64,000 nt of DNA, taken from an uncultured Nitrospiraceae bacterium (GTDB taxonomy: Bacteria > Nitrospirota > Thermodesulfovibrionia > Thermodesulfovibrionales > Dissulfurispiraceae). A model generated the notes under the pieces. The model saw only the letters and a list, made by a program, of their open reading frames with translations, did not search any database and had not been told where the DNA came from. Position numbers and translations under genes: made by a program. The stretch lies in contig CAVPIW010000006.1 in NCBI GenBank assembly GCA_963705105.1, positions 640,001-704,000 of the forward strand, in the 5' to 3' direction. Of the stretch, positions 36,250 through 44,150 are shown one piece after another (position 1 is the stretch's first letter; every line of letters starts with the position of its first letter).

Positions 36250-39200
36250 CTATTGCTTAGTATGGCACTTCGTGCCAATTAACTTCTTGGCTGAGTCATA
36301 CTTTGCCGTCCAGCGATTGCAATACTGATAGTCAGGGGAGAGGCCTAATACTGGCTCTTCGTTGATGCCCAGATATCTTTCTTCGATCTTGTTTCCAGCC
36401 GGGTCATACGCAAACTTCGTAATGTGTTGGTATCTGCCAAGAAGTCTTGCAGGCTTACCATCTGTTCCAAAATATCTTTTCTCGATAACTCGCCGCTGGC
36501 TGTCATACTTCTGTGTCATTCGAGCATAACCGATTAACTTATCGTACAAAGCGTTATCGTCTCCATAGCAAGCACGCTCTACTTGATTGCCGGCGGAGTC
36601 GTATTTATAGGTCTGGACCGCACAGCTACTGTTCGGAAGTATCTTCGGTCTGCCATCGCCTCCAAAGTAAGCTTCCTCTACGAGATTGCCGCGAGCATCA
36701 TATTTCATACTCATACGCGCATACCCATACTTCGCTTCCGAGGGCTTACTTTTATCATCAAATGCAGAGATTTCCGTGAGGTTCCCTCGATCATCGTATT
36801 TCTTCAATAAGCGTGAGTATTTCGATGCATTCATCACCGGCTGCCCCTCATCGTCAAAGGTCATTTGTTCCACGAGTTGCCTTCGACTATTAAATTTTTG
36901 TGTACATCGATGATATCTGTTCCCTGTCATAATGGGTTTGTTGTCATCTATTCCAAAATAGGCTATCTCCGTCTGATTGCCGTAACCATCGTACTTGGCT
37001 CTGTAACTCGCAAAACCCCATTCATTATTTTCTCCCTGCCATGGAATAAGAACTGGCTTTCTCTCGGTATTCAGATAGACCTGATAGCTCACTTTGCCTT
37101 TAACATCATATTTCATACGAGTTTCTGCATATCCCAGTACGCCTTGTGTAAGTTTCCCATTCGTATCAAAATAGGATTCGCTTGTCATTTGTCCCAATGG
37201 GTCGTACGTCCGTACGATCTTGGCAAATCCTTCGTTGCTATTAGTCAGTTTTCTATTTACAGCATAGTAGGCTATCTCCCGTTCCTTGCCTTGGGTGTTC
37301 CTTTTGATTTCAACTGTTGCGTATCTTGTTCGCTTATTCATAACTACCTTACCATCTAGCCCTTTGTAGGTAACTTCTGTTTCGTTTCCAAGATGATCAT
37401 ACTTATATCCGATCTTGTGGTATCCATCGCGATGGACAATGGGGCCTTCAGGACCAAAATATGCCTTCTCTATTGGACATCCTTCCTCCTTTAAACATCC
37501 CCGTTCGTCGTAAAGCCTCACTTCCCTATGGAACCCTTCATCCTTGTAGAAAGCCGGTTTGTCTTTAGCATCGTAAAACAATTGTTCAGTAACCCTCCCA
37601 AACGGGTCATACTTCTTGACGAGAAGTGCGTAGCCCTCTTCAGAGGTAACACGACTGTCATCAATGCCATAATATGATATTTCGATGGCTTTGCCCTGGT
37701 CGTTATAGCGTCGTTCGACTGAGTGGTAACCACCTTTTATGAACACTTTCTCAACATAGACCCCAAAGTAGGCGCTCTTCTTCTTGTTTCCGCGTAAGTC
37801 ATACTCGTGAATCGCACGCGCCCATCCGTCCTTATGCAAGACAGGCTCCCCATTAATGCCGAAATATGCCTCCTCAATAGGCTGATTTTGCGGATTAAAC
37901 TCTTTCTTCCAATAAGAATACCCGCCAGCTCTTTCATCTTGCCAAGGAACAAATGCTGGCTTGCTGTTGATATCCAAATATCGCAGATCTATAACATTTC
38001 CATGAGCATCATACTTCCTAGTCCAGCCCGCGTAGCCCTTTCGGTGCGTTACCGGACTTCCGTCTAATCCGAAGTACTTTTGCTCTATCTCATTGCCAAG
38101 AGGGTCATATTCGGATGTGTACCCTGCCACTCCGTCGCTTGATAACGTTTGCTCACCCCTTAAGCCTGTGTATGTGCGTCGCCTTTCGTTTCCTCTCTCA
38201 TCATACTCTGATTTCCAACCAGCATAGCCGTCATGCCCACGCATCGGTTTATCCATGACATTCAAATACACAGTCTCAATCTGGTTCCCGCTCGCATCAT
38301 GTTTTGCGGTCCATCCTGTGTATCCCTCAGTGCTTACGATTCGTTTACCATCGGGACCATAATAGCGAACTCTTACGACGTTGCCATAGTTATCAAATTC
38401 CTGTTCCCATCGCGAATAACCCTTGTTAGAAGCAACGGGCTCTCCCTTGATTCCGAAGTAGGTCGCGCCGATCAATTGTCCATGAACATCATAGCCTCCT
38501 GTCACCTGCGCATATCCTTCCTTGATTAAAGTCCGTGCGCCATCAGCCCCAAAATAGGAACTGTCTTCGAGTTTCCCGGAATCATTGTAACGGTACGTCG
38601 CCCGGGCATAGCCGTCCTTAAACTGCGTTAGTCTCCCTGCAGTATCATAGTAGGATGTTTCCACTAGTTTCTTTAGCCTGACGTCATATTTGCCTTTCCA
38701 GACGGCATAGCCATCCTTATTCGCTGTGAGCTTTTGATCGAGGCCAAAGCAACTCAGTTGGATAGGAAGATTGTCTTCGTCATAAGCCAAAACCAGGCTG
38801 TAGCACCCCCTATCGCCCACCGTAGGCTTATCCTCCATATCCAAGTACATCTCTTTGATGATGTTTCCCTGACCATCTCGTTTCCACTTAACTTTATGAT
38901 AGCCTTTTACGTTGAGTGTTTTTTTCCCATTCTCGTCAAAGTAACCCTCCTCAGTCATATTACCATTGTCGTCATATTCACTTCGTATGACCGAATAACC
39001 GCTCTTTAATGTAACTTTCTCTCCTAATGCATCTAAAGCCTCTTGTTTACGCGGGTTCCCAAAACCAAAGGGATCCAGATCCGTTACCTTTATAGTTGCA
39101 TTGCCGGCCTCGTCGTTCATATATTCATCATTTGGCCCCAATGATGTCTGTTCGAGCAATATTCCTTTCTTGTTGTAGCGCCTTAATTGCCCAAAAGCTT

Positions 39201-41550
39201 TATCGGGCCCACGTATGGCCTGATTGCCTCGATTCCGGTAGCGTCTGTATTCTTCGATGCCTTTCCCGGTATCTCTATATTCAATTTCTACATAACTCTC
39301 AGCGTACTGCTTATCCTTGCGAGGATAACCAGTGTCGTCTACAAAATATCCGGTTCGGACTCTCTCCCGCCCGCCTTCGGGAGGTAAATAGACAAATCCC
39401 CATATTCGCTTCCCTTTGTTATCAAGTGCTGTTTCATAAGAAACACGTTCTTGGGCATCGTAATTGAACTCCCAGGCAACCTCATTGGGTATTCGCTCTT
39501 CCGATGATTCGAGATAAGTGCCGATACGATGAATGGGGGTTAATTTTCCCTTGCTATTGACTGTTTCCATGCGAAGAACGGGACCCCATTTGCCTTTTCT
39601 TATGATTTTGATCGAGACAGGACGATGCTGGACCTGTGCGAGCGTCAATTCACCGACTCCTCTCGGCTCGCCTAAGAAAGGGCGATGCTTGACTTTTGCA
39701 AGAATCAATTCGCCGAACCCCTTCGGCTCACTATGGACCTTAACAAAAGAGCTGAAGTATTCGACATAGTCCCAATGCGTCAGATAGCGATGCAGAAGAA
39801 TGCCTACAATCAGCATCAACACCGCTGTGCCGAAACCCACGGCAAGCCGACGCATCATCTTAAGCTTTTCACGTTGTTCGGCCTCACGCTGCAGTGCCGC
39901 TTCCTTCTCCCGCTGCGCGCGATCAAGAGCTTCGGTGCTTGCCTGAACAAACTCCTTCTCGAGACGCGTGAGGTCTGCCTGCTTTCTTGCCTCTTCCAGC
40001 TGCCATTCCCTAAACAGACCATCCCAGTCTTTGGATTTTCCTTTTGCCTCCCATTGATGCGCCGCCTGAGTAAGGGAGAGGCGATCACGAAGGATGCGGC
40101 GTTTATCATCGATCCACCCTGCTAAGAGCGGCCAGTTGCGGACCAGTGACTCGTGCTTGATCTCGACCACATCGTCGGCACCACTGACGCCGGGCGTGAT
40201 GCGCAAGTAGTCGTTCTTCTTAAGCAGTTCAAGCACTTCCTCCGTGTTCGCCTTGCCAGCCTGCAGCAAGCGGCTTTTGGGCAATGGCTGGCGATAAGCC
40301 TCGAGCATCTCATCGACGCGTACCAACTCGAGGAGTATACGCTTGATCTCTGTCTGGGTTTGCTCTATTTGTGCGAGGTAGAAGGTATCGGCGGCGTTCT
40401 TGAGTGCCTCCAGGGGATCGCCTACTGTTCTGTAAACCTCCCAGGTGATTCGGTTTCGTTTGCGTTTCTCCCAAAGTGCGTGCAAGGTGAATTGTAACAA
40501 CGGAAGCGCCGCGGGCTGGCCGAGCACCTTCTTCACTAGGTCGTCTACAATTCCTGATTGGAACTGTAAGTTTACAAGGGCAGCAGGCTTCTCTACCGCC
40601 GCCGTTAATTCCTCATAACTCATTGGCCGCATCCAGTACCTTGAGGGGCTCAGTTCACGCAACTCATTGATCTTACTATCGAACTCAGCACGCACGGTCA
40701 GAATCACACGGTGGCCCCGAGCGGCATCCAATAGATGAGCGAGGTTTCTTACCAGTGCCTCACGGTCTGCGGGGTCGGACAGCGTGAACACTTCCTCGAA
40801 CTGGTCGATAGTGATCAGTGCAGTCACCGCGTTTTCTTCGCCAAGCATGGCATAAAGATATTTGGGATCCTGCCGAAGGCGTGTCACCTCCTCTGCGACG
40901 ATGCTGTTCGCGGCTGGGTGGGCTTGTCGAACAGCATTTACTAGGTTGTCGAGTACGGAATTACCCGGAACAAATGGCGGAATGACGAACAACTCAGGCA
41001 TCGCGCCTTTCTCCTTGAGCGCCGGCAGAATGCCCCCCATCACAAGGGAAGACTTCCCGCTACCAGACGCGCCAAGCACGACAACAAGCGGCTCTTGACG
41101 AAGTTTCGTCAGCAGCTCCTTTATGTCATCCTCTCGGCCGAAGAAGTTCGCCCGGTCGCGAAAGGCATCGAGGCCGACATAGGGACATAGCTTGTCCTTC
41201 AGGTCCGGCAGTTTCTCGCTGTCGAAGGGGGCCAGGTTTGCAGGCGGTACCACGATCCCCGCCCTAAACAGGCAGGAGACCCAATAGTCCAAAAGCACCT
41301 GGCAATCAGAGCGCTGAAGGATCTCTTCGATATAGACCCCTGTCGCTGCCCCACGTTCCAAGAATTGCCTGAGCTTTGGTTCAAGCCTCGCCAATGCGAC
41401 TGCTTCGCTCTTATCGGCTGCGTCTTTCTTAAGCTCAATACTCAAAGCTTTCATGAAGGCGGCGTGCTCATCCTGCAGCTCGGTCGCACTCTCGAAGGGC
41501 TCCACTCGGCGAAACTGGTCCGGATTTGACATATCTTCCCTTTCTAACAT
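36250..41550 (-). CDS. NLR-like nSTAND1 NTPase with N-terminal helical domain, one TM helix and C-terminal YD/RHS-like repeats
   Basis: CPYVGLDAF...FFGRE, Walker A GASGSGKSS, Walker B IDQFEEVFT, LPLLQFTL, IKHESLVRNW; TM LAVGFGTAVLMLIVGILL; more than 20 GY-x5-YD-x2-G-x6-Y-x-G/D-x-DG repeats; alternative start 41532. Confidence 0.88.
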   Translation of the reverse strand: MLEREDMSNPDQFRRVEPFESATELQDEHAAFMKALSIELKKDAADKSEAVALARLEPKLRQFLERGAATGVYIEEILQRSDCQVLLDYWVSCLFRAGIVVPPANLAPFDSEKLPDLKDKLCPYVGLDAFRDRANFFGREDDIKELLTKLRQEPLVVVLGASGSGKSSLVMGGILPALKEKGAMPELFVIPPFVPGNSVLDNLVNAVRQAHPAANSIVAEEVTRLRQDPKYLYAMLGEENAVTALITIDQFEEVFTLSDPADREALVRNLAHLLDAARGHRVILTVRAEFDSKINELRELSPSRYWMRPMSYEELTAAVEKPAALVNLQFQSGIVDDLVKKVLGQPAALPLLQFTLHALWEKRKRNRITWEVYRTVGDPLEALKNAADTFYLAQIEQTQTEIKRILLELVRVDEMLEAYRQPLPKSRLLQAGKANTEEVLELLKKNDYLRITPGVSGADDVVEIKHESLVRNWPLLAGWIDDKRRILRDRLSLTQAAHQWEAKGKSKDWDGLFREWQLEEARKQADLTRLEKEFVQASTEALDRAQREKEAALQREAEQREKLKMMRRLAVGFGTAVLMLIVGILLHRYLTHWDYVEYFSSFVKVHSEPKGFGELILAKVKHRPFLGEPRGVGELTLAQVQHRPVSIKIIRKGKWGPVLRMETVNSKGKLTPIHRIGTYLESSEERIPNEVAWEFNYDAQERVSYETALDNKGKRIWGFVYLPPEGGRERVRTGYFVDDTGYPRKDKQYAESYVEIEYRDTGKGIEEYRRYRNRGNQAIRGPDKAFGQLRRYNKKGILLEQTSLGPNDEYMNDEAGNATIKVTDLDPFGFGNPRKQEALDALGEKVTLKSGYSVIRSEYDDNGNMTEEGYFDENGKKTLNVKGYHKVKWKRDGQGNIIKEMYLDMEDKPTVGDRGCYSLVLAYDEDNLPIQLSCFGLDQKLTANKDGYAVWKGKYDVRLKKLVETSYYDTAGRLTQFKDGYARATYRYNDSGKLEDSSYFGADGARTLIKEGYAQVTGGYDVHGQLIGATYFGIKGEPVASNKGYSRWEQEFDNYGNVVRVRYYGPDGKRIVSTEGYTGWTAKHDASGNQIETVYLNVMDKPMRGHDGYAGWKSEYDERGNERRRTYTGLRGEQTLSSDGVAGYTSEYDPLGNEIEQKYFGLDGSPVTHRKGYAGWTRKYDAHGNVIDLRYLDINSKPAFVPWQDERAGGYSYWKKEFNPQNQPIEEAYFGINGEPVLHKDGWARAIHEYDLRGNKKKSAYFGVYVEKVFIKGGYHSVERRYNDQGKAIEISYYGIDDSRVTSEEGYALLVKKYDPFGRVTEQLFYDAKDKPAFYKDEGFHREVRLYDERGCLKEEGCPIEKAYFGPEGPIVHRDGYHKIGYKYDHLGNETEVTYKGLDGKVVMNKRTRYATVEIKRNTQGKEREIAYYAVNRKLTNSNEGFAKIVRTYDPLGQMTSESYFDTNGKLTQGVLGYAETRMKYDVKGKVSYQVYLNTERKPVLIPWQGENNEWGFASYRAKYDGYGNQTEIAYFGIDDNKPIMTGNRYHRCTQKFNSRRQLVEQMTFDDEGQPVMNASKYSRLLKKYDDRGNLTEISAFDDKSKPSEAKYGYARMSMKYDARGNLVEEAYFGGDGRPKILPNSSCAVQTYKYDSAGNQVERACYGDDNALYDKLIGYARMTQKYDSQRRVIEKRYFGTDGKPARLLGRYQHITKFAYDPAGNKIEERYLGINEEPVLGLSPDYQYCNRWTAKYDSAKKLIGTKCHTKQ

Positions 41551-42668
41551 ACTCGCAAGAGAGTCTGTAACGGTTGGTTTAGTTCACTCAGCCGGTTGCA
41601 AAAATCCTTAAGTCTTCTGTCGGCTTCCCGGAACGCGGTACCCACAAACTGCGAGTAGTTCATGAGTAAGATCCTCGCCTGCTTCTTGTCATTATGATCT
41701 AGTGCTTCATCGATAACGATTTCCATCTGACTCAGCTTTTCCTTAAGATTGTCCATGTCTTTGTCTATGAAGGGTGGTATGAGCTCTGAAGCTGCCGTCT
41801 TGGTCAATTCCCACTCACAATCCAGCCCCCCCGGTGAGAGTTTATTTGCAAGCAGGGCGCGCAACCCATCATCTAGCCTCTGTAGTTGGCCATGCTCCCT
41901 GACTCGTCTCTCAAGATCTGCTCGCAACCCGTTCAGTGCATTTATGCTCTGAACAAACTGCACAAGTAAGACATCGTTCTCAGGATGCTCCACGGACAGA
42001 GTTTCCTTTACCGACTCTAATAGCTCCACAAGACGATTCAGCTTCAGCTCCTTTGCAGCGTTAGATATCATAGAATCGAGCCTCGGTGGAATTCTGGAAC
42101 GCAGCTGTTCGAGCCCAGTCTTCACCTTGTCTAAGATAGCAGTATTTTCGGGTGCATTCACAGCCTCTTGGAAGTCCGCTTCAATTAAATCGAGTCGCTT
42201 ACCAAGATCTGGAAAGGGGTCGGTCTCACGTCCCCTGATTGCCTCCTTGATCTGATGAGATTGTTGATCAAATTGAAATTGAAGCGGATCCAGCCAAATT
42301 CTGGTCCTCCTAAGTGCCTGCATTTGGCGAAGGATTTCGAATTCAATAGTATGCAAGGAATCATGAATGGTCTTCAAAAGTTGCATCTCACTGATTCGCT
42401 GTGCAGTATCCCGCATTTCTTGGGAGAGGGTTACCCCGTTGCATGCCGTTGGATCATTGGAAATCCGGTCTGTGAGCTGTTTGAGGCCTATCTTTACAGA
42501 GTCAAGTAAACCCGGAAAGTTGATAACTATCTTGTCGCCTCTCACCTCATCCCCATGGACGAGTTTGTCACGTCCTACAGAATCGCCGCCGACGCTGACA
42601 TTGTCCTTGAAGTACGCGCCACCGGCCTTTTGATCAGCCCCTGATTCCTTTCCGTCTTCAGTCGTCAT
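41544..42668 (-). CDS. Alpha-helical hypothetical protein with N-terminal GGAY...VSVGGD.VGRDK.VHGDEVRGDKI motif (putative adaptor)
   Basis: 374-aa ORF overlapping the STAND gene start; motif shared with caspase 42753-44150. Confidence 0.75.
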   Translation of the reverse strand: MTTEDGKESGADQKAGGAYFKDNVSVGGDSVGRDKLVHGDEVRGDKIVINFPGLLDSVKIGLKQLTDRISNDPTACNGVTLSQEMRDTAQRISEMQLLKTIHDSLHTIEFEILRQMQALRRTRIWLDPLQFQFDQQSHQIKEAIRGRETDPFPDLGKRLDLIEADFQEAVNAPENTAILDKVKTGLEQLRSRIPPRLDSMISNAAKELKLNRLVELLESVKETLSVEHPENDVLLVQFVQSINALNGLRADLERRVREHGQLQRLDDGLRALLANKLSPGGLDCEWELTKTAASELIPPFIDKDMDNLKEKLSQMEIVIDEALDHNDKKQARILLMNYSQFVGTAFREADRRLKDFCNRLSELNQPLQTLLRVC

Positions 42669-42752
42669 GGCAAACCTTACAAACCCTAAATAACCTCAAC
42701 TTGAGTCGTCAACGATCTCGACGATATATACACATACTTGGAACGTTTGAAC

Positions 42753-44150
42753 CTATTTCCCCTGAATCTTATCCAGCACGAATTTGGTGACCGGCCCGGC
42801 GATTCCACCCAGAATCGGGGAGGCAAAAATACTCGCAATACCACTCACTGCTTCTGGAACTAGGGCAATCAGTCCATCGATCAGCTTGCCCATCTTGTTA
42901 TCATCAGCTGCCTTCCCTTTTGCTACTTCCTGTTTTAGCTCCTCTACCTTCTTCAGAGCCTCTGTCTGATTGGCGGCGGGCACTTCCCGAATGGATGACA
43001 TCAACGGTTCGAACAATCTTTGAAGGTCCTGATCAGATATCCCTGTGGTGACGGTGGACCGGGCGCCCCGGCCGATGGCGATCCCCTGACCAGAAATGTC
43101 CCCCACCGTTATCCTGTCGCCTAGAATTTTATCGCCTCTCACCTCGTCTCCATGGACGACCTTGTCACGGCCTACAAAATCGCCGCCGACGCTGACAGCC
43201 CCCCCGATGTACGCACCGCCGCCAGTATCAATAGTGGTCACAGTACCTGCTTTTTCACCCTCAAGAGGTGCGAGCGGATCGGGTGCTGCCAAACCCTTCG
43301 CTATACCTTTGCCGCCCAGGAGCAATGCGATCGGGAAGTTCCCGCTTACCTGGTAATCCGGCTCCTGCGGCTGACCCCAGTCAGCTTTCACGCTTTCCGG
43401 TACGTTGCGCCACACATAACTCATCACGTCGGAGACTAACACCTCCTTGGCACCCTCTTCGGGCTGCGCATGGCCAGTCAGCGCTTCGATCAAGTGATAG
43501 GTAAAGATGCTCATCTTCCCGTCCTTGCGCATATAAGAAGGTTGTTCTCCCTGTGAGGAACTCAGCACAGCCCGACCTGCTCCTTTGGTCAGCACTTCCA
43601 AACCCTTAGCGCCTTCCTTTGGAGTTACTCCCTTGGCTGCTGACATGAATATTTGCGTTGGAATGGCAGATCGCTTGTAAGAAGCAATGCCTTTAATTCC
43701 CATGCCGCCGGAATGACAACAGTCAAGTACTACGAAGAGACGCTGTGGTTTAAGAGCATTAATGGCATCAGCGAAGTCCTCTGCCCTGAGAGCACTTGAT
43801 TTGAATGCCTCCTCGTCCACGTCGTACGGAATGAGAAAATACTGAGGCTGCTGGCCGTCGTCTCGGTCTCCATGTCCTGAGTAAAACACGATAGCCGTGG
43901 CATTTCCGCTTGCATCATCGTTAATCTTCTTCTTTAGTCGGGTTAGCCCTCCAAGGATATTCGCGCGAGTCGAATTCGACCCCAGGATGACTTCGACGTT
44001 TTTCTCAAGATAGGCACACCGCTCCGGATGGACAAGTACATTTTGCAGAGCCGTAACATCTTTTTCCACATCAGGAAGAGCCCATGTGGGATTGCTGTTT
44101 TCGTTAACTCCAATCAACAACGCATATCCACTAATGAATTGCTTTGCCAT
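42753..44150 (-). CDS. Caspase-like (peptidase C14) protease with Gly-rich repeat motif and C-terminal helical domain
   Basis: YALLIGVN, catalytic FYSGHG and LDCCHSG, SIFTYHLIEALTG; GGAGGAGG RBS before ATG 44150. Confidence 0.9.
   Translation of the reverse strand: MAKQFISGYALLIGVNENSNPTWALPDVEKDVTALQNVLVHPERCAYLEKNVEVILGSNSTRANILGGLTRLKKKINDDASGNATAIVFYSGHGDRDDGQQPQYFLIPYDVDEEAFKSSALRAEDFADAINALKPQRLFVVLDCCHSGGMGIKGIASYKRSAIPTQIFMSAAKGVTPKEGAKGLEVLTKGAGRAVLSSSQGEQPSYMRKDGKMSIFTYHLIEALTGHAQPEEGAKEVLVSDVMSYVWRNVPESVKADWGQPQEPDYQVSGNFPIALLLGGKGIAKGLAAPDPLAPLEGEKAGTVTTIDTGGGAYIGGAVSVGGDFVGRDKVVHGDEVRGDKILGDRITVGDISGQGIAIGRGARSTVTTGISDQDLQRLFEPLMSSIREVPAANQTEALKKVEELKQEVAKGKAADDNKMGKLIDGLIALVPEAVSGIASIFASPILGGIAGPVTKFVLDKIQGK

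Follow-up and report, generated by a model that had tools for sequence, protein, structure and literature searches.

The gene cluster considered here lies in a 64,000-nucleotide (nt) stretch of DNA from an uncultured Nitrospiraceae bacterium (contig CAVPIW010000006.1, positions 640,001 to 704,000), hereafter the window, whose numbering is used throughout. Its six genes, all on the minus strand, encode among others two caspase-like proteases, a gasdermin and an NTPase of the STAND type (signal transduction ATPases with numerous domains). Our subject is a short glycine-rich motif carried both by the second protease, caspase 2, and by the product of the next gene, which we call the adaptor. From upstream to downstream, the genes (sizes in amino acids, aa) and their features, with independent E-values (i-E) for matches to the hidden Markov model (HMM) of the motif, are the following:

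48217-46121, minus strand: 698-aa protein, which opens the same-strand cluster; partial match to CehA/McbA (PHP-type) metallohydrolases (NCBIfam NF038032, 1.2e-17, under its cut-off).
46105-45248, minus strand: caspase 1, a stand-alone Peptidase_C14 protein (Pfam, 8.2e-30) without the motif.
45079-44282, minus strand: bacterial gasdermin (PADLOC bGSDM, 1.9e-87; NCBIfam prok_gasdermin, 2.5e-65).
44162-42753, minus strand: caspase 2, 469 aa, with Peptidase_C14 at residues 12-251.
43410..44129, minus strand: protease domain of caspase 2 (Pfam PF00656, 2.9e-18), with His (SGHG) and Cys (DCCHSG) present.
43125..43232, minus strand: unit A of the motif in caspase 2, residues 311-346, IDTGGGAYIGGAVSVGGDFVGRDKVVHGDEVRGDKI; the effector-side copy (motif HMM i-E 9e-19), aligned with 19 module homologues.
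43047..43124, minus strand: unit B of the caspase 2 beta-region, residues 347-372, LGDRITVGDISGQGIAIGRGARSTVTTG; kept in the module alignment and not found in the adaptor.
42756..43040, minus strand: C-terminal helical tail of caspase 2, TCAD2-like, with a Gly-rich hydrophobic stretch at residues 427-456 (Kyte-Doolittle maximum 1.69).
42668-41544, minus strand: adaptor, 374 aa; as a whole protein without assigned family (Pfam, PADLOC, NCBIfam).
42528..42626, minus strand: N-terminal motif copy of the adaptor, residues 15-47 (motif HMM i-E 2.9e-12).
41547..42509, minus strand: all-alpha domain of the adaptor, residues 54-374; no Pfam family; the constant partner domain of nSTAND1 genes.
41550-36250, minus strand: nSTAND1 NTPase, 1,766 aa (Pfam nSTAND1, 3e-88, and RHS_repeat; NCBIfam YD_repeat).

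Residues 315-346 of caspase 2 (GGAYIGGAVSVGGDFVGRDKVVHGDEVRGDKI) and residues 16-47 of the adaptor (GGAYFKDNVSVGGDSVGRDKLVHGDEVRGDKI) are identical at 26 of 32 positions. A sequence-only reading of this DNA had described such a peptide of about 30 residues, common to caspase 2 and the next protein, and the peptide is indeed found at both of the places that it gave; its count of differences between nt 43132-43197 and 42535-42600, namely 6 of 66, is exact. DNA similarity at the constant offset of 597 nt spans about 42528-42626 and falls to background level beyond. When the two whole proteins are compared by BLASTP, the motif stretch is recovered with E = 5e-15 and nothing significant appears outside it. 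The 32 shared codons differ at 18 of their 96 nt. Fifteen codons are affected, nine of them changed only synonymously and six with a change of residue. The peptide has thus been retained while silent sites drifted, which is expected neither of chance resemblance nor of a fresh duplication. Judging from this codon pattern, both copies have been under purifying selection since their divergence. The nearest relative of the adaptor copy is found in P0167, an NB-ARC-type fragment that starts with a long form of the motif (27/34 identical), followed by the caspase 2 orthologue P0008 (26/32) and then by the window caspase 2 (26/33). Six-frame regular-expression and profile searches of the 4.2-Mb genome to which the window belongs detected no third copy.

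The motif contains, twice and 11 residues apart, the pseudo-repeat GD[FE]V[GR][RG]DK, already recognized in the sequence-only reading as GD-x-V-x-x-DK. Hydrophobic residues of the beta-region follow a period of five, with autocorrelation peaks at lags 5 and 10, and the composition is marked by 27% Gly, 13% Val and 7% Ile, with 0.9% Leu and 0.7% Pro. One option raised earlier was the RIP homotypic interaction motif (RHIM), whose core tetrad is (I/V)-Q-(I/V)-G. This option has to be abandoned: there is no Gln in either window copy and no Pfam match at E ≤ 10.

The peptide is not private to these two proteins. Residues 296-469 of caspase 2, used as query among 1,931 candidates, match 307 proteins at E ≤ 1e-3, and an alignment including 19 homologues outlines a module of about 170 aa that comprises unit A, unit B and a helical tail. 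What had been perceived as a unit of about 30 aa shared by two neighbours is therefore shared as described, but it corresponds to the first unit of a widespread module. The consensus of unit A is I-D-T-G-G-G-A-Y-[IV]-G-G-x-V-x-x-G-G-D-F-V-G-R-D-K; it is often lengthened by V-H-G-D-E-V-x-G-D-K and by more five-residue units of the GDK type, the number of which varies among homologues. Unit B has the consensus G-D-K-I-T-V-G-D-I-S-G-x-G-x-A-I-G-R-G-A. A strict regular expression finds the motif core in 92 of the 120 proteins listed among the 307 matches, and with a 33-position profile of unit A, 1,511 clusters (50% identity) are matched through their representatives at E ≤ 1e-3, 50 of them at E ≤ 1e-10. 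The region N-terminal to the module is variable and can be a caspase, CHAT, Macro, TIR, EAD1 (effector-associated domain 1, with or without EAD7), a zinc ribbon or nothing. In effectors the motif is internal, placed after the caspase, CHAT, TIR or other domain and before a TCAD2-like tail of about 95 aa. The closest orthologues of caspase 2 (P0008-P0016) are 64-81% identical to it in the module.

TCAD2 (PF19971) is a Pfam family of the EAD domain series. Several homologues match it (P0103 3e-21, L055 1.5e-17, L050 7e-13), and the TCAD2-matching proteins align with the tail of caspase 2 at 47-64% identity; caspase 2 itself gives no TCAD2 match at E ≤ 0.01. AlphaFold2 (AF2), run on the module alignment, predicts five helices for the tail, with a predicted local confidence (pLDDT) of about 90, and leaves the whole beta-region (module residues 1-75) disordered as a monomer, with pLDDT below 50. 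A fold search with the tail returned generic helical-bundle matches only (top Z 7.7, PDZD7 HHD), and an Atlas look-up gave only leads below 0.9, towards TCAD2-type small proteins. As for the motif, nine motif-only segments matched no Pfam family even at E ≤ 10, EAD models included. It co-occurs with bDLD1, EAD1, EAD7 and EAD9 in single proteins, and the EAD1, EAD7 and EAD9 matches lie beside the motif, not on it.

Some individual architectures may be mentioned at this point. Two proteins (L061:983-1996 and L073:9398-10393) unite bacterial Death-like domain 1, the Gly-rich motif and EAD7, which suggests that they are hubs bridging different coupling systems. In P0220 and P0258 (176-189 aa) a long form of the motif precedes a different helical tail with a terminal hydrophobic segment; the motif thus also serves tails other than the TCAD2-like one. 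The closest caspase 2 relative of the genome collection (L041:8946-10639; phmmer 2e-104) has its caspase and its motif plus tail in two overlapping frames, a split that is due either to a frameshift or to an assembly error. At L018:1317-10648 (Caldilineaceae), a CHAT-AAA_16 ATPase-TPR protein, a subtilase and a caspase-motif-TCAD2 protein place three protease types in a row, and no second motif copy was detected in this locus. At L063:9863-14609, the motif is joined directly to an FGE-sulfatase domain in a 366-aa protein that lacks an NTPase; a SIR2-like protein and an nSTAND1-WD40 protein come next.

The arrangement of the window, with one copy on an effector and another on a neighbouring gene product, recurs in other genomes. 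Scanning one genome per species with the module alignment yielded 79 loci, mostly from Chloroflexota (Caldilineaceae, Anaerolineales), Burkholderiales/Rhodocyclaceae and other Proteobacteria, and Acidobacteriota, and all their stop-to-stop open reading frames (ORFs) from 40 aa upwards were searched with HMMs of unit A and of the tail. Motif and tail occur together in one ORF in 52 loci, 21 have only motif-bearing ORFs without tail and six have only the tail. A second motif-bearing ORF, devoid of the tail, was found in 22 of the 52 (9/25 loci flanked on each side by 5 kb or more, and 13/27 with shorter flanks), so that the paired occurrence in adjacent genes, which the sequence-only reading had suggested looking for with an HMM, does exist. 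Twenty of these 22 partners are, by Pfam, NACHT proteins (mostly with a C-terminal FGE-sulfatase), NB-ARC or nSTAND1 proteins, with the motif near the N-terminus; in the remaining two loci (L050, L055) the partner is a small helical protein that begins with the motif. Paired genes are mostly collinear and abutting or overlapping, and two NTPases accompany one effector in L043 and L044.

Unit B can be paired as well: in L014 a CHAT-unit B-TCAD2 protein is followed by an nSTAND1 starting with unit B, and in L002 the effector is followed by a 713-aa ORF starting with unit B. Viewed from the sensor side, in an independent sample, nine of the best 150 profile matches have an N-terminal motif and at least 300 aa behind it, and seven of these nine are STAND NTPases (four nSTAND1, two NB-ARC-TPR, one NACHT-FGE-sulfatase). 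The motif stands directly on nSTAND1 in L069, P0132, P0159, P0237 and P0273. Beside a motif-bearing caspase, the NACHT-FGE-sulfatase protein L066:7764-10736 (minus strand) starts with G-V-A-I-G-G-N ... I-T-G-D-G-N-x-Y-I-V-G-N, a Gly-rich stretch missed by both the unit A and the unit B profiles. Further pairable units therefore probably exist, and the rate of 22/52 is likely an underestimate.

For co-variation, one effector copy and the nearest copy without tail were taken from each of 23 loci, the 22 above and the window. Identity over a 27-residue core is 0.665 within loci versus 0.61 between loci, and over the 14 variable columns 0.43 versus 0.34; none of 20,000 shuffles attained the observed within-locus identity, whether for the core or for the variable columns. 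A copy's own partner ranks in the top six for 13 of the 23 loci, and 15th or lower for four.

In the window, the partner copy is carried by the adaptor. AF2 predicts ten long helices for its residues 54-374 and disorder for residues 1-51, with a pLDDT of about 27 over the motif. Six protein homologues, 35-38% identical, and the relatives encoded in 21 metagenome loci all align with it over the helical part only. All of them, proteins and metagenome loci alike, have a TIR domain at the N-terminus, and none contains the motif. The ORF directly downstream of these relatives is an nSTAND1 in 9/9 cases tested by Pfam and matches the window NTPase by phmmer in 19/21 loci, the other two loci ending too early. 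An N-terminal output fused to the helical domain and followed by nSTAND1 hence constitutes a conserved two-gene unit, of which the window is the only member seen with the motif rather than TIR in the output slot of the adaptor. Such a swap is expected of an adaptor that passes the signal to a separate, equally tagged effector. The role of adaptor, attributed to this protein in the sequence-only reading, finds its support in the TIR domain of all 21 metagenome relatives, upstream of nSTAND1. The adaptor stop and the nSTAND1 start do overlap, by 7 nt (junction ATGTTAG). A fold search with the helical domain gave generic helical-bundle matches only (top Z 12.3, IpaD). The two small proteins of L050 and L055, in which the motif precedes a helical part, were considered as short relatives of the adaptor and rejected (hhalign probability 0.5%). 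The C-terminal region of the NTPase itself (36250-39700, minus strand) is built of YD/RHS-like repeats over about 1,100 aa, where relatives of the NTPase beside TIR-helical proteins have WD40 or TPR repeats.

From these comparisons we propose, with a probability of about 0.8, that the motif is a homotypic coupling tag between a sensor of the STAND type, similar to nucleotide-binding leucine-rich repeat (NLR) proteins, and a separately encoded death effector. The homotypic adaptor imagined from the sequence alone survives in this form, through the pairing, the placement at STAND N-termini and the within-locus likeness, and loses its RHIM component. For the window as a whole, a split sensor unit, a tagged adaptor and a tagged caspase 2 together make what we regard as the best explanation, and a fairly probable one. 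The sensor unit would be divided between the nSTAND1-YD-repeat NTPase and its 374-aa helical partner, which holds the tag on a disordered N-terminal arm, and caspase 2 would carry the matching tag between its protease domain and its TCAD2-like helical tail. As in known STAND/NLR proteins, the repeat region of the NTPase would sense a trigger and the NTPase would oligomerise, and this oligomerisation would cluster the adaptor tags. Clustered tags could then adopt a stacked beta arrangement, with the five-residue periodicity of the motif, able to capture or to template the tag of caspase 2; comparative genomics supports the coupling at this step, and it is the beta-stack or amyloid geometry that we infer. 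Induced proximity would activate caspase 2. Gene order suggests that the latter may cleave caspase 1 and/or the gasdermin, and perhaps free or switch on its own TCAD2 tail as well.

The physical nature of the assembly is a more delicate question. Several features may hint towards amyloid: the disorder of the monomer in the models, the five-residue periodicity, the variable number of GDK units, a composition rich in Gly, Val and Ile and poor in Leu and Pro, and a genomic logic like that of bacterial amyloid signalling sequences (BASS). We would put an open-ended amyloid-like polymer, as opposed to a finite complex, at slightly under even odds. The most elaborate version, a family of stackable beta motifs (amyloid-like, solenoid-rung) nucleated by the NTPase, which would polymerise caspase-TCAD2 into a speck-like platform and fire a caspase cascade onto the gasdermin, is tentative and rather unlikely to hold in all its parts. 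A complex prediction with caspase 2 residues 300-372 and adaptor residues 1-62 gave a score of 0.00, which, obtained without controls, is evidence neither way.

The tag could instead be a finite docking element, working by beta-strand augmentation within a closed complex of fixed stoichiometry, as Death-fold domains or EADs do, and with no self-propagating polymer. This fits all the genomic coupling evidence equally well, and it would agree with the conserved charged residues (GRDK, GDK), with the low content in Gln and Asn, with the folded TCAD2 domain behind the motif and with the fact that some proteins combine the motif with helical EAD or Death-like adaptors. We nevertheless hold it to be a minority possibility, since both copies are predicted to be disordered alone, the count of GDK-type five-residue units varies as expected for stackable rungs, and the length, the Gly/Val composition and the placement at the N-terminus of NLR proteins are those of described amyloid signalling motifs. 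In a further scheme, the motif would drive self-assembly of motif-TCAD2 proteins and the adaptor copy would act as a cap or decoy, keeping caspase 2 inactive until released by the NTPase. Stand-alone motif-TCAD2 proteins of 128-181 aa do exist (L019, L028, L044, L048, L055, L060, L072, L079), the borderline hydrophobic Gly-rich segment of the tail means that the module could itself be an effector, and EAD1-motif-TCAD2 proteins couple through another domain. Nothing in these data separates inhibition from activation, but in BASS11 and HET-S/NWD2, as described in 10.1101/2024.11.07.622273, the sensor-side copy activates, and this scheme appears improbable to us. Least probable of all, to the point of being hardly credible, is a shared peptide that serves as a common recognition or cleavage site, both proteins being substrates of caspase 1 or caspase 2. 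The locus does contain two caspase-like proteases, the motif has several Asp, Arg and Lys residues, and related EACC1 effectors are activated by caspase cleavage (10.1101/2025.11.14.688446), yet pairs occur in which neither partner has a protease domain: in L005, L044, L060 and L079, a TIR-like or motif-TCAD2 effector stands with a NACHT-FGE-sulfatase partner.

Several observations weigh against the coupling tag or against its extension to the whole locus. In the window the second copy sits on the helical partner, not on the NTPase, and it is gene order only which suggests that the helical domain would bind the NTPase; a search of longer proteins, in which only one CHAT protein matched, via the motif, found no adaptor-nSTAND1 fusion, an absence that is in itself weak evidence. 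Within the DNA examined, 30 of the 52 effector loci show no second copy. The co-variation effect is modest and can be inflated by shared lineage, and the window pair ranks only 5th of 23 on the 27-residue core. Gln and Asn, which mark many amyloid signalling motifs, show no enrichment (2.6% and 4.2%) and the GRDK core is charged; the effector motif precedes a folded tail, unlike that of described BASS/HET-s pairs. Finally, no homologue of the gasdermin, of caspase 1 or of the 698-aa PHP-like protein was detected by phmmer in any of 100 other loci, and PADLOC found no gasdermin in the three loci whose caspase 2 relatives are closest. The link to gasdermin thus depends on a single gene order, and for an output through gasdermin we see the chances as evenly balanced. 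The 698-aa protein, which ends 15 nt upstream of caspase 1 and has zero Pfam or PADLOC matches, could be a second, protease-gated effector.

The locus was likely acquired by horizontal transfer. In its own phylum, the motif was detected in 2 of 401 sampled genomes, namely its own and one with a marginal match (E 4.8e-4), and the helical domain of the adaptor in its own genome only, other matches covering the TIR part of the profile. The G+C content of the locus is 44-54%, versus 55-63% in the left part of the window; the YD/RHS-repeat stretch at 36250-39700, with 44-48%, is the minimum of the window.

To our knowledge, paired short motifs are the only known route by which NLR-like sensors signal to separately encoded executioners besides Death-fold and EAD domains, and we know of few bacterial paired-motif families that have been experimentally tested. 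The present motif, which no Pfam model describes, is strongly conserved; clustered at 50% identity, its carriers fall into at least 1,511 clusters, and they include proteases, TIR, Macro and small helical effectors of Chloroflexota, Proteobacteria and Acidobacteriota. With its sensor, adaptor, tagged caspase, second caspase and gasdermin, the window offers a compact six-gene test bed for a beta-motif that would replace CARD (the caspase recruitment domain) in caspase recruitment, and the natural swap of TIR for the tag in the adaptor provides a built-in control. If true, the proposed cascade would be the first example of a bacterium that connects amyloid-type signalling in series with gasdermin pyroptosis, two routes to cell death viewed until now as distinct in fungi and bacteria, and a dedicated adaptor protein would take the role of ASC.

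Among known systems, BASS1-10 were described by Dyrka et al. 2020 (10.1101/2020.01.06.895854), with a reported composition bias. As far as the published descriptions allow a comparison, BASS1-11 and the present motif are alike in length (about 25-35 aa) and in composition, with much Gly and Val and little Pro or Leu. In both cases the two copies belong to neighbouring genes, mostly collinear and often overlapping, one copy being N-terminal in a NACHT or NB-ARC protein and the other lying on a death effector. BASS motifs have also been reported with CHAT, TIR and EAD7 domains (10.1101/2020.01.06.895854; 10.1101/2024.11.07.622273). In the portion of the PMC8086366 supplement that was searched, none of the exact words GGAY[IV], GGGDF or VGRDK occurs in a BASS1-10 set, the single GGAYV match being an entry of the PDB-derived negative set; a loose G-[ST]-G-x-F-[IV]-G-R-D likeness is visible in only a few members of BASS2, in a word search and without profile comparison. 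In BASS11 (Bab/Agp, 10.1101/2024.11.07.622273), single proline substitutions in the strands lead to loss of function, and the conserved Q92, D99 and N100 have no obvious counterpart in our motif. The effector motif of BASS11 is found at the C-terminal end after a Bell domain, whereas here it is internal and followed by TCAD2, and so not at the extreme C-terminus after a membrane-targeting domain of the Bell/HeLo type.

The second point of comparison is the EAD coupling of NTP-dependent conflict systems (Kaur et al. 2020, PMC7159879; Kaur et al. 2021, PMC8195603), where NACHT/nSTAND1-FGS (FGE-sulfatase) sensors bear interchangeable N-terminal EADs. Both in those systems, as there presented, and in ours, the same module is found on the NTPase N-terminus and on separate effectors, adjacent copies are the most alike, and the partners are similar: NACHT or nSTAND1 with FGS, caspase, TIR. 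In contrast, EADs are helical domains, with one alpha+beta exception, and the present motif is short, disordered, Gly-rich and beta. The main text of Kaur 2020 is without TCAD, nSTAND1, 'glycine-rich' or 'amyloid'; its source-data files may describe the module. EACC1-caspase two-gene systems (Kaur 2020; Evans et al. 2025, 10.1101/2025.11.14.688446) also bear a resemblance: the protease domain of caspase 2 is nearest to the EACC1-associated NCBIfam model (caspase_w_EACC1, 3.5e-26), and both involve a small module with a Gly-rich hydrophobic helix. They differ in that caspase 2 stays below the model cut-off (92 versus 140 bits) and in that its tail resembles TCAD2 and forms one protein with the protease; neither an EACC1 gene nor a match to an EACC1 model turned up.

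The CARD-dependent gasdermin system of Lysobacter (Wein et al. 2023, PMC10312443) shares with the window, according to its published account, an operon with gasdermin, two proteases and a STAND ATPase, in which one protease bears an extra homotypic-interaction module; in Lysobacter this module is needed for activation. The proteases are trypsin-like there and caspase-like here, and the extra module is an N-terminal six-helix CARD there and a C-terminal beta motif plus TCAD2 here. No Death-fold family was found by Pfam on either window caspase, and caspase 2, whose protease domain starts at residue 12, leaves no room for an N-terminal domain. Unlike Lysobacter, the window has a separate helical adaptor with a matching copy. 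The literature that we searched holds no description of the present motif, of an amyloid-type motif in a bacterial gasdermin operon or of TCAD2 in this context, and where compared it treats amyloid signalling and gasdermin proteolysis as separate routes. The design principle is thus known in two forms, NLR-associated amyloid motifs and EAD coupling, to which the window adds what appears to be an undescribed motif family, with an unusual layout (a tag followed by a TCAD2 tail, and a split adaptor) and a unique association with gasdermin.

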